A stretch of DNA of 4,078 nt from a virus (taxonomy: Duplodnaviria > Heunggongvirae > Uroviricota > Caudoviricetes), in IMG/VR virus record IMGVR_UViG_2541047122_000024. One strand, given 5' to 3'. Of this stretch, positions 1-3,000 are shown piece after piece. Within the stretch, counting starts at the first letter, position 1; every line of letters starts with the position of its first letter. Made by a program: the position numbers.

Positions 1-3000
1 CTCACGGATTACGGCGTCAATTTTTTCTTCCATCCGTTTATAGTCAGGAAGAAGTCGTTTCAGTGGTGCGGGGATGTCCTGGCAATATGCTTCTGTTGCA
101 TCATGCATTAAAGCTTCAAAAGCAAATTCCTGTGGCACCAGCTGGCTGCAAAGCACCGCATGTTGGGCGACACTGTAGAAGTGTGAAAGATGTCCTGCAA
201 AGCGACAGATATTTGAAAGGGAAACCGCGATATCGTTAATAACGATGTCGTCTTTATTTATCCTGTCATAATAAAAATGCTTCCCGGAAAAAGTTTTAAT
301 AAATGACATTTTGTTCTCCACGTATATGCGCTGCACCGCGCTGAATTCGGGTAAAAGGAAGCCCTCACCGTCCGGCGATTATTGAGTCAATTACATTTCC
401 ATAAATGCCCCCGTAGGGGCGGTTAGTTTCTCCACAAAACAGAGAAGAACACCTGCGGTGGCAGCCGCCCGGATGGATTGGGTTATGAGCCCGTCGTCCG
501 GTGATGCTCTTCTCTGTTTTGTAAAAAGGACGGTACCAGCCGGAAGCAAGGGTACAAGCTGGTACCGCTAAGACTACACACAGCATAAAGTTGTGGTGCC
601 GGGTGCCTCCCGGTGCCTGGCGAAGGTTGCACACCAGGCGGGTGGGTATCCACAGAAGGTCGACTGTCAGCCTCAACCTTAACCCGCGTGCGCTGAGCCG
701 CATTCACCACAACGCTAAGGATTCTCTCTGGTTGAAAATACTTAGCTGTTATGTGCCTGTCTTTTCACCACTTCAGGCTCGGTGGTATCCTTTTAAGCCC
801 GTATACATAAAAGGAAAATCAAATGACTTTTGATGAAAAAGAACTTGATAATGCAATTAATAAAATCATCGTAACGTCGCTCTTTTCCTGTCTCAGCGAC
901 ACTCAGCAAAAACAGTTCTACGAATCGGCTTTCAACATGATCGAGCGTTGTTGTTTCTGCGATGCCGACGAGTTACCTGAAAAAATCAGGAAACAGTTGG
1001 CTGATGCTCTTCGAGTGCGACTTTCTGACCAATTTTCTGAAATGTACTCTCCGAATTTGGACAAATAGAAAAAGGCCATTTCCATTCAGGGTCTGATGGA
1101 AAGACTTCAGCCTGTTCTAAAGCACGGCGTAAAGAGAACACAACTCCAGCCATAATCTGATGTTTCCCATTGGTCCAGCTATCGCCGCTCTGATCTACAG
1201 GGGCGGCTATGTCGTATGACCAAACGACTTCACAGTTATTGTTTAAAATCTGGACTTTCATTTCATACACCTGCTTTAACATGAGTGCCTAGTGGCACAA
1301 CATGACTCAACGAATCATCCTGGACTTCATATGCCCCAGGCGGCTACTTCGTGGGCGTCCTGCCTGTTCGTTTTTGACATTTACTGACTGCTTACGACAC
1401 ATGCACCGTGTTGCAACCAGATTTTGTTGTAATCCTGTAGTTGGTCTGGAATAAAAGATAAAATTAAATTGCGAGATATGCAAGTGGTATTTGCGAGATA
1501 TGCAAATTTATAGGTAATAAAAAGCCACCTTTCGGTGGCCGATGGATGGGATATTGAGGTTAATTATGTCTCTTAAGGGTTTGCGACTGACTGATTAAGA
1601 CCTTTCCAAAGACCATGAATCGGTGTTCGTTTTCGCTAGTAATTCCCCATTCACGGTAAATCTGGTTATCAGAAATCACCAGCAGTTTGTCAGGAATCAT
1701 TTGAAGTCTTTTAACGTATATTTTGTCATCAAAACCAAAGACATATATACCATCACCATCAAACTGATTGATGCTGACATCAACGAAGATGAGATCTCCT
1801 GGCTCAATGGTTGGACACATACTGTCCCCACGAACGTTGATAACTTTGATGTGATTGGCTGGTCGTCCGCCGAACATTGATACAGCATTATCAGTTCTGT
1901 ATTCGATGGCATGAATCACATCAATGACATCACCGCCCTGGATAAGGCCATTTCCCGCACTGGCACTGATATCCAGCATTTCAATACGGAACACATCCTT
2001 CACCTGCGCAACATCCTCATTATTACTGTTTTTATATACAGTATTACTTTTGTGGGCAGAGGTAAAGAGATCAGCAATATCAACACCTAAGCTCTTGGCA
2101 ATATTACTCAGTGTTTGTTCGGTAAATTGTTTTTGCTTACCCGTTTCTAAGCGCGAGATGTTCGCCGCATCTACTCCTATCGCTTCAGCGAGATCGGCGA
2201 TTTTCATGTTCTTCGCTTGGCGAAGTTGTCTGACTCGGTTTCCTATGTTCATGCGTTTATTACATTTCTTTATTGCGTGATAAGCAAATCAACTTGCGCA
2301 AAATAATTGCGTGAAATAACATGCATAACGCGCAATATTTGGAGGGCGTATGCAATCACCATTACGAAATGTGCGTAAGGCGCATGGTTTCACTTTGCAG
2401 CATGTTGCTGCGGGTGTTCAAGTCAATCCAGCGACGTTGAGTCGTATTGAGAGGCTGGAGCAGATTCCATCTATCGAGCTTGCAGAACGTTTAGCCAATT
2501 TTTTTAAGGGTGAAGTCAGCGAAATGCAGATTCTTTATCCGGCACGTTTTCAATCTAGCCAAAACCAGAATGGGTTTAAACCACAGGAACAGGAGGTGAA
2601 CCGTGGGTAAGCATCACTGGAAAGTAGAAAAACAGCCTGAGTGGTACGTGAAAGCTGTCAGAAAAACTATCGCAGCGTTGCCGGGGGGGTACGCTGAAGC
2701 TGCTGACTGGCTGGATGTAACAGAGAACGCATTATTTAACCGCCTTCGTGCCGATGGCGATCAGATTTTCCCGCTGGGATGGGCAATGATTTTGCAACGT
2801 GCTGGTGGAACTCACTTCATTGCTGACGCTGTGGCGCAGTCTGCAAATGGCGTCTTTGTGTCTCTTCCTGATGTCGAGGATGTGGACAACGCCGATATCA
2901 ACCAACGCCTGCTGGAGGTCATTGAACAGATCGGCAGTTATTCAAAACAGATTCGTTCAGCAATTGAAGACGGTGTAGTGGAACCGCATGAGAAGACAGC

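Follow-up and report, generated by a model that had tools for sequence, protein, structure and literature searches.

We analyzed a 4,078-nucleotide (nt) stretch of viral DNA (IMG/VR record IMGVR_UViG_2541047122_000024; hereafter ‘the window’, meaning the whole of this stretch), and we describe here two small convergent genes, designated A and B, whose coding sequences overlap within it. It represents the immunity region of a lambdoid prophage of the SfV/SfII/e14 type in Escherichia coli O157:H7. Positions 700-1560 show 100% identity to a prophage that is integrated at thrW in E. coli O157:H7 FRIK2455, and positions 417-1375 show ~98.6% identity to Shigella phage SfV. A preliminary description of the window had drawn attention to two converging open reading frames (ORFs) at this place, accompanied by an antisense micro-ORF, a hairpin and a plus-strand terminator, and had proposed that together they form a moron or a toxin/antisense RNA-like module. 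All of the sequence features that it listed are present where it placed them. The two genes and the signals that belong to them are as follows.

823-1068, plus strand: gene A, an ORF of 81 amino acids (aa) with an ATG start; phrog_3311 (function unknown)
811-816, plus strand: Shine-Dalgarno (SD) sequence of gene A, AAGGAA, 6 nt before the ATG, read from the sequence
986-1261, minus strand: gene B, 91 aa; phrog_3195 (function unknown); the same span is called by PGAP
986-1068, both strands: segment of 83 nt in which the coding sequences of A and B overlap antiparallel (74-173 nt in other lineages)
1003-1044, both strands: dual-coding core of 42 nt, in which conserved parts of the two proteins overlap (A ...ALRxRLxxQLxE.., B ..FQxxxxxVALE.P)
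755-791, plus strand: left boundary element, with a -35-like TTTTCA at 762-767, an 18-nt spacer and an extended -10 TGG-TATCCT at 783-791
755-786: interlocking inverted repeats within this element, GCCTG 755-759 / CAGGC 774-778 and ACCAC 767-771 / GTGGT 782-786

Coding status of genes A and B

Existing annotations do not agree on this locus. The SKA5 annotation calls the plus-strand ORF (gene A), whereas in SfV the minus-strand ORF is the only one annotated, as orf33; PGAP has no annotation for gene A in O157, and the same was true of the RefSeq/PGAP records that we examined. Because the pipelines disagree on which ORF to call, annotation cannot decide which of the two is real.

For an evolutionary comparison, diverged lineages were reached through protein clusters and their contigs, using phmmer with A, a profile search with B, and contig look-ups. 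Two scans of a genome-contig collection showed no relative, a first scan of viral contigs gave 100%-identical copies only, and most of the ‘diverged’ matches in the early protein searches were frameshifted or chimeric calls. Apart from near-identical or frameshifted copies, which made up most of their yield, the first protein searches gave one genuinely diverged B homologue (P0012). Its contig, L008, carries a different immunity region and aligns without gaps to window positions 823-1261 at 69% identity, with both frames open, and the antisense ORF of 76 aa that it encodes, beginning MTFDEKELNYALNKIVMTSLF, is a clear homologue of gene A. In total, we obtained 8 diverged lineages (~50-70% protein identity, one of them from Salmonella enterica), all with both frames open in a gapless alignment. 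The distance from the ATG of A to the ATG of B is exactly 439 nt in every lineage.

We then calculated the proportions of synonymous and nonsynonymous differences (pS and pN), averaged over all pairs of the 8 lineages, for the part of each gene that lies outside the other. The A-only part gave a pS of 0.73, a pN of 0.22 and a pN/pS of 0.30 in its own frame, with no stop codon, and the other frames contained 10-46 stops; synonymous sites in this part are near saturation. The B-only part gave a pS of 0.66, a pN of 0.20 and a pN/pS of 0.30 in its own frame, again with no stops, and 15-36 stops were present in the other frames. In the window-type clade, common single-nucleotide polymorphisms are mostly synonymous in each gene’s own frame. 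Given the own-frame pN/pS of 0.30 without stops, and the stops in all other frames, both ORFs are genes; judging from these comparisons, A and B are both conserved and protein-coding. Gene A is therefore a conserved gene that goes without annotation in the records mentioned above. It is not a shadow of B: two thirds of it (823-985) lie outside B, and other phages have it where B is missing.

These results bear on several points of the preliminary description. It had named conservation of one strand’s frame only as an outcome that would speak against it; by pN/pS and by the alignments, both frames are conserved, and the 83-bp convergent overlap at 986-1068 that it reported is confirmed as one in which both coding frames persist through the 8 diverged lineages. 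The plus-strand ORF that it had credited with a good SD sequence is a conserved gene, and AAGGAAA before gene A is kept in every A/B lineage. The minus-strand ORF that it placed at 986-1282 is likewise present and a conserved gene, but its start has to be moved. Although the ORF is open back to 1282 (the 98-aa version), we place the start at the ATG at 1261, because all homologues begin with MKVQIL and one class of mosaic junctions lies at 1263. An SD sequence of gene B, AGGTG, is found at 1272-1268, 6 nt upstream of this start.

Taken as a whole, the overlap at 986-1068 is less conserved than any other part of the cassette (the window and L008 are 57% identical here at the nucleotide level), since the extreme C-terminal tails are free to vary, and the stop positions of A and B shift between lineages. 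The core at 1003-1044, however, reaches a nucleotide identity of 0.79, the maximum in the cassette, compared with 0.66-0.71 elsewhere. Its pS is 0.24 and 0.27 in the two frames, compared with 0.73 and 0.66 in the single-coding parts, and it contains no stops. Synonymous change has thus collapsed in both frames, which is the expected mark of true dual coding. Since both frames are under purifying selection and synonymous change is held down where the two genes coincide, A and B represent a clean case of antiparallel dual coding in bacteria that is backed by evolution, a category that has often been doubted.

The two proteins vary in length across lineages, from 74 to 81 aa for A and from 91 to 122 aa for B. 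A long C-terminal extension of B is found in five lineages and is missing in three, and it looks like an antisense echo of A’s conserved middle. Homologues of A show 38-64% identity to it, the family reaching down to 38% in a phmmer search of 1.84 billion proteins, and the B family reaches 49% in a profile search. Gene A was modeled as a three-helix bundle (predicted local distance difference test score, pLDDT, of 81 in the best model and ~65 in the remaining four), and this fold gave no significant match in PDB or BFVD. The model of gene B was poor (pLDDT 58), too poor for a fold search.

The A/B cassette and its slot

Judging from its distribution and its boundaries, the segment at 755-1272 belongs to the mobile accessory DNA of lambdoid prophages and forms a cassette of two genes, which we found in prophages of both E. 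coli and Salmonella. In our tblastn set, all 10 B-carrying loci (11 with the window; 8 lineages) also carry A in antisense with the same spacing, and none has B without A. Their contexts comprise at least six immunity regions and one late-region context, L174, where the cassette lies next to the lysis genes. According to the gene tables, B is co-oriented with the surrounding lytic genes at every locus examined and A always runs against them, so that A is an opposite-strand gene inside a co-oriented operon, the arrangement of an excludon, whether that operon is the pL operon or a late one. In the window, gene A runs counter to the pL operon, and gene B is the first gene downstream of the CI-repressed pL promoter. 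The preliminary description had spoken of a rightward unit embedded against the leftward early operon, and a real plus-strand gene, A, does lie against that operon. Its placement of the minus-strand ORF in that operon holds for the window in that B comes first after pL, but B is part of a mobile cassette and not a fixed gene of the operon. We also considered whether B, as the first pL gene, is an N-like antiterminator, and rejected this, as the content of the slot varies and a late region is among the places where the cassette is found.

Across 171 loci, similarity junctions cluster at 785-789, 1263, 1309 and 1372-1380, the first of these within the 755-791 element. The slot from ~789 to 1263/1309 contains at least four unrelated cassettes between flanks that are otherwise 93-99% identical; the cassette is thus inserted between conserved genes and absent from close relatives, as is a moron. 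Besides A/B, we found the following pairs in this slot.

ECs1072-family pair, 144 aa / 68 aa: convergent, 29-bp overlap
SfII pair, 63 aa / 68 aa: convergent, 39-bp overlap
e14 pair, ymfI / ymfJ: convergent, 63-bp overlap

All three share a layout in which a plus-strand gene converges on, and overlaps, a small minus-strand gene. No homology of these pairs to A or B was detected by hhalign (for the e14 pair, the probability was below 1%). When A, B and the other cassette proteins were compared with Pfam, PHROGs, NCBIfam and PADLOC, the matches were to PHROGs of unknown function, apart from NCBIfam families for ECs1072 and YmfI that provide a name only; profile searches against PDB sequences gave nothing for A or B. 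Of 5,426 complete E. coli genomes, 425 have the complete A/B cassette, under which only one gene is annotated in the records that we examined.

In contrast to B, gene A also occurs by itself, at three places (L173, L185 and L186). In L173, where it is alone, its neighbours are Q and the holin gene, and it is carried by the strand opposite to theirs. In L185 it occupies the same position, where a weak match (E = 0.046) may be a fragment of B that was left behind. The interval from Q to the lysis genes is a known position of morons. In both L173 and L186, the ORF comes with an SD sequence and a similar element upstream, and its stop is directly followed by a stem and T-run that look like a terminator, as judged by eye. 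Next to the A homologue of L185 are a Sib antitoxin RNA (2773-2925, minus strand; 107 bits) and HicAB, and L174 has C4 and IsrK RNAs (5862-6045, minus strand) with a Fic/Phd pair close by. A-family genes thus appear in regions rich in accessory and toxin-antitoxin genes.

The 755-791 block lies ~35 nt upstream of the SD sequence of A and is kept in all 8 A/B lineages. L174 keeps it too, though everything further left there is unrelated, and the same element precedes three unrelated plus-strand genes, namely e14 ymfI, the SfII 63-aa gene and the ECs1072-family gene. In its -10 hexamer, T1, A2 and T6 are kept and positions 3-5 vary. From these features, we infer that the element is a candidate promoter of A. 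The topology of its repeats, which overlap the extended -10, fits an H-type pseudoknot, and the L177/L178 lineage shows a compensatory change of both repeat arms.

Two further small genes were observed beside the cassette. In L006 (E. coli G4/9), an extra gene for a 67-aa ‘ClpX C4-type zinc finger’ protein (2071-2274, minus strand) lies between B and a conserved element of the pL leader that is described below, and the extra zinc finger gene of some window-type cassettes sits exactly at the 1263 junction. In L177-L179, a second counter-oriented small gene (77 aa, minus strand) converges on an 86-aa gene (plus strand) just downstream of A/B, at 4113-4604, and the two make up one more pair of this layout.

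Possible interplay of A and B

We lean towards the reading that A is a moron-type gene interlocked with a lytic-phase partner, B, in the manner of the noncontiguous tai/ati operon of phage φ80. The following mechanism is proposed from the architecture of the locus and from known analogues. Gene A would be transcribed from its own promoter in 755-791 (extended -10 TGGTATCCT) and would be a gene expressed in the lysogen, hence a moron. Loss of the repressor would bring about strong pL transcription through B and antisense across A, and B would be made. Given that the coding sequences overlap by 83 nt, any full-length mRNAs of the two genes must overlap, and read-through from pL would silence A by transcriptional interference and the formation of double-stranded RNA. 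A and B would then be expressed in opposite phases, as in an excludon or a noncontiguous operon. Gene A also occurs alone, whereas B did not turn up in any locus lacking A; B would therefore most likely act on or through A, for example as the lytic-phase antagonist of a lysogen-phase effector.

The closest model for such an arrangement comes from φ80. There, the lysogen expresses the counter-oriented gene taiEcA, atiEcA is a gene of the operon driven by Q, and Q expression lowers Tai; Tai is a defence and Ati a counter-defence protein, and the two form a noncontiguous operon (PMC11364771). The A/B locus resembles it in having an opposite-strand accessory gene inside a lytic operon and a small co-oriented gene beside it, the pair being inherited together. 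In φ80 the co-oriented gene is made only in the lytic cycle, and read-through of the operon lowers the counter-oriented gene. There are also clear differences. Tai is a 26-kDa protein, compared with 81 aa for A; the operon is Q-driven and late in φ80, and mostly the early pL operon in the case of A/B; the coding sequences of A and B overlap antiparallel by 74-173 nt; and A/B is not known to have a defence phenotype. In addition, A and B show no sequence similarity to the φ80 pair: in a tblastn search of 50,697 phage records they matched SfV-type phages only, and PADLOC gave no match.

A second comparison is provided by the e14 pair, which occupies the same slot between pL and an STnc100-like region, follows the same upstream element and has a convergent overlap of 63 bp. 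YmfI and YmfJ are not homologous to A or B by the hhalign comparison given above. The pair ymfI-ymfJ appears among the convergent excludons listed for at least 50% of 58 K-12 RNA-seq sets (PMC12288877). In the late SOS response, e14, which has a CI-like repressor, showed a log2 fold change of 4.83 for ymfJ and of 1.98 for ymfI (PMC11002266). The minus-strand gene is thus induced under a CI-like repressor, as would be expected of B, but reciprocity between the two genes is not clearly shown by these changes.

Classical lambdoid morons, such as λ bor and lom and the HK97 morons described by Hendrix and colleagues, resemble A in being extra genes between conserved genes, absent from relatives and provided with a promoter-like signal; the terminator-like hairpin is matched in the A-alone loci. 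The A/B cassette differs from them in having no conserved terminator, no contrast in G+C content and a second gene on the opposite strand. For coliphage 186, Callen, Shearwin and Egan are reported to have put forward, in 2004, a transcriptional interference model for convergent lytic and lysogenic promoters. The likeness is that a lysogen-phase promoter faces a strong lytic one, the stronger being expected to silence the weaker. In 186, however, the promoters are 62 bp apart and control the lysis-lysogeny switch, whereas here they are ~650 bp apart and flank accessory genes, and interference is inferred.

Several observations weigh against our reading. A and B match no known defence, toxin or regulator family or fold, and no homology to defence or anti-defence systems was found with PADLOC, Pfam, NCBIfam or the fold searches. 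The candidate promoter matches 8 of 12 consensus positions, and the consensus scan does not report it; the 755-791 element could instead be an RNA or DNA structure, as it has inverted repeats with some compensatory change. The G+C content of the cassette (42%) equals that of cI (42%) and of the yfdR-like gene at the left end of the window (42%), so that it lacks the deviating base composition of a moron, and no conserved plus-strand terminator for A is present inside the cassette, where a moron would carry its own. The protein tails evolve freely and the stops move, so that the overlap ranges from 74 to 173 nt and may be incidental to a large extent. Even in φ80, Tai levels stay constant after mitomycin C induction (PMC11364771), and silencing in layouts of this kind can therefore be weak. 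We also searched the literature for expression data on this O157 locus and found nothing.

Some of these points lead to another explanation, that A and B are real genes but functionally unrelated neighbours, with no coupling or interaction, and that their overlap is a neutral by-product of compaction and drifting stops. In its favour are the poor conservation of the overlap in the window, where the pN/pS of the B frame is ~1, the variation of the stops and of the overlap length (74-173 nt), the occurrence of A alone in other phages, and the 122-aa form of B, whose extension is missing in three lineages and resembles an antisense shadow of A. On the other hand, B was never seen without A in the 10 B-carrying loci, in spite of their varied contexts and with identical spacing throughout; the conserved cores of the proteins overlap by ~42 nt with the dual-coding signature; three non-homologous cassettes of the same slot repeat the convergent overlap; and overlapping transcription has been reported for the e14 pair (PMC12288877). 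We therefore regard mere neighbourhood as possible, though not as the likely explanation.

Another alternative concerns the left boundary, which we take for the promoter of A. It could instead be an RNA structure (the 3' end of the B transcript or the 5' end of a small RNA, sRNA) or a recombination joint, with A transcribed from elsewhere or by read-through. The two interlocking inverted repeats, which have G-U pairs and a compensatory change in one lineage, fit a pseudoknot; 785-789 is a cluster of mosaic junctions; and in several contexts an STnc100-like RNA starts ~10-45 nt further on. However, A is still accompanied by the element in L174, L177, L180 and L183, which gave no STnc100 match. 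Furthermore, T1, A2 and T6 of the -10 hexamer are kept together with the TG of the extended -10, at a fixed distance to the SD sequence, and the fold energy is no better than that of shuffled sequences on either strand. Thus, this alternative seems unlikely, but it deserves to be kept in mind.

Our preferred reading, in which A and B are interlocked, may be extended to the slot as a whole. A/B and the unrelated pairs of the same slot might constitute a class of swap-in cassettes, in each of which a lysogen-phase effector (anti-phage or host-modifying) is physically interlocked, through the antiparallel coding overlap, with its own lytic-phase antagonist, all of them behind one portable promoter and inverted-repeat element (755-791) that doubles as the recombination joint. 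On this view, A would be a new small effector of defence or exclusion, and B its self-immunity protein. We consider this extension rather doubtful. The A/B layout fits the recently described logic of noncontiguous operons, in which a defence gene expressed in the lysogen is combined with a counter-defence gene of the lytic phase. At least four unrelated convergent pairs with a shared upstream element in one slot point to a general design rule, and the pairs of this slot are candidate effector/antagonist pairs in prophages of pathogenic E. coli, Shigella and Salmonella.

The possibility that only the minus-strand ORF is a gene, the plus-strand ORF being a chance or shadow ORF, is very improbable: PGAP annotates 986-1261 alone in O157, the records listed have one coding sequence under the cassette, and SfV has orf33 alone, but the 823-985 part of A lies outside B and has a pN/pS of 0.30, no stops in 8 lineages and synonymous sites near saturation, and A homologues occur where no B exists, in a family that extends down to 38% identity.

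We can dismiss almost entirely the idea of a type I toxin-antitoxin-like module, with a 27-aa toxin or with a plus-strand transcript ending at 1337-1377 that would act as an antisense RNA. The features of the preliminary description that bear on this idea are listed here, together with a conserved element that partly coincides with the last of them.

1209-1292, plus strand: 27-aa micro-ORF from the ORF listing; a chance ORF, not a gene
1079-1085 / 1096-1102: hairpin TTTCCAT / ATGGAAA
1351-1367 together with TCGTTTTTGA, plus strand: terminator-like site from the consensus scan, with 3 of 7 pairs GC
1310-1371: conserved structured element of the pL leader, with an inner stem 1319-1323/1336-1340 and an outer stem 1310-1314/1367-1371

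The micro-ORF has an ATG, AGGGG upstream and a hydrophobic sequence, and the terminator-like site follows it. However, all 7 other lineages lack the ATG and have ACA, ACG, GCG or GAA in its place, and in SfII the stop is lost and a 92-aa ORF results; the 27-aa product matched nothing in Pfam or PHROGs. The micro-ORF therefore drops out as a part of the module. The hairpin at 1079-1102, with 7 of 7 pairs here, is perfect in this lineage only (2-5 of 7 pairs in the other lineages), and its plus-strand fold gave z = -1.1 relative to shuffles. The plus-strand terminator proposed at 1337-1377 fared no better. The fold of 1300-1385 on that strand is no more stable than shuffles (z = -0.18); the stem 1337-1343/1360-1366 shows no covariation and has one pair broken in 6 of 12 variants; and the T-run at 1371-1375 coincides with a recombination junction, most variants having another sequence in its place. 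The stable GC-rich stem and conserved U-tract of an intrinsic terminator are thus missing, as are the conserved hydrophobic toxin ORF and the conserved antisense RNA with promoter and terminator that would make up a type I module. Type I systems with a convergent 3' overlap, such as txpA/RatA and bsrG/SR4, do resemble the locus in having two convergent units with overlapping 3' ends. They differ from it in that A and B are conserved proteins of 81 and 91 aa, accompanied by neither a hydrophobic toxin nor a conserved antisense RNA with its terminator. Of the earlier proposal of a moron or a toxin/antisense module, the moron-like half is thus retained, with the swappable slot, the promoter-like element, the SD sequence and the A-alone loci in its support, and the toxin/antisense RNA half is given up.

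The element at 1310-1371, in contrast, is real but folds differently from the earlier proposed terminator stem. It shows 87-89% identity across otherwise different contexts, and 96.7% of its cells are paired. Three pairs have compensatory changes, and none of 500 shuffles reached its covariation score; the G-U pairs slightly favour the plus strand. L177 and L182 have the element on the opposite side of the cassette, and L174 lacks it; it is therefore independent of A/B. It had no Rfam match. A reading as a nut- or put-like site was also tried and rejected, as the element occurs as a single copy in the window, with no second copy in the rightward operon.

Neighbouring features of the window

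The remaining features of the window are as follows.

1-309, minus strand: yfdR-like HD hydrolase gene, at the left end of the window
521-743, minus strand: STnc100/PasD-like sRNA (Rfam RF02076, 43 bits against a gathering score of 47, E = 3.6e-7)
1483-1455, minus strand: candidate pL promoter, -35 TTGCAT 1483-1478, 17-nt spacer, -10 TATCTT 1460-1455, hexamers read by eye
1469-1483 and 1491-1505: two OL operators TTGCGAGATATGCAA from a repeat search, overlapping the candidate pL promoter (span of the features together, 1455-1505)
1523-1540, minus strand: cI terminator, from the consensus scan
1560-2252, minus strand: cI
2350-2610: cro, followed by a cII/YmfL-like gene at 2603-3154 and then by a replication gene

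A third copy of the operator TTGCGAGATATGCAA lies at OR, at 2273-2287. The STnc100-like sRNA is downstream of the A/B cassette in the direction of pL transcription and belongs to its context, outside the cassette, which it adjoins in some contexts only. PGAP lays a pseudo coding sequence, a ‘frameshifted hypothetical protein’, over 521-743, and the K-12 equivalent of this stretch is annotated as ymfH, which is probably a spurious ORF over an RNA gene. In a 2026 preprint, STnc100 and PasD have been joined as one family.

Further to the right, 3151-3509 (plus strand) contains two ORFs on the same strand but out of frame, each called by different pipelines. The ORF at 3151-3489 (112 aa) is YmfM in SKA5 and a hypothetical protein in SfII, and that at 3330-3509 (59 aa, TTG start) is a DUF4222 protein according to PGAP. 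This may be another case of overlapping genes, or one of the two may be a miscall.

The last ~126 bases of the window (3953-4078) belong to a multicopy element that occurs at 23,339 places in complete E. coli genomes, with up to 50 copies per genome. It resembles the left end of an IS3-family element (TGAACCGCCCCGG...). The exact junction of this element was present in no complete genome of the collection searched. The element shortens the replication-initiator gene to 160 aa, compared with 313 aa in FRIK2455. Within the replication gene, at 3800-3874, there are tandem, partly palindromic repeats (TCTGACCCGTCAAAATCTGACGCATCAAAATCTGACCCGTCAAAATTTGATGCGTCGAAATCTGG) that code for DPSKSDASKSDPSKFDASKSG. 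An Rfam match to mir-5880 at these repeats was rejected as spurious; they are probably origin iterons.

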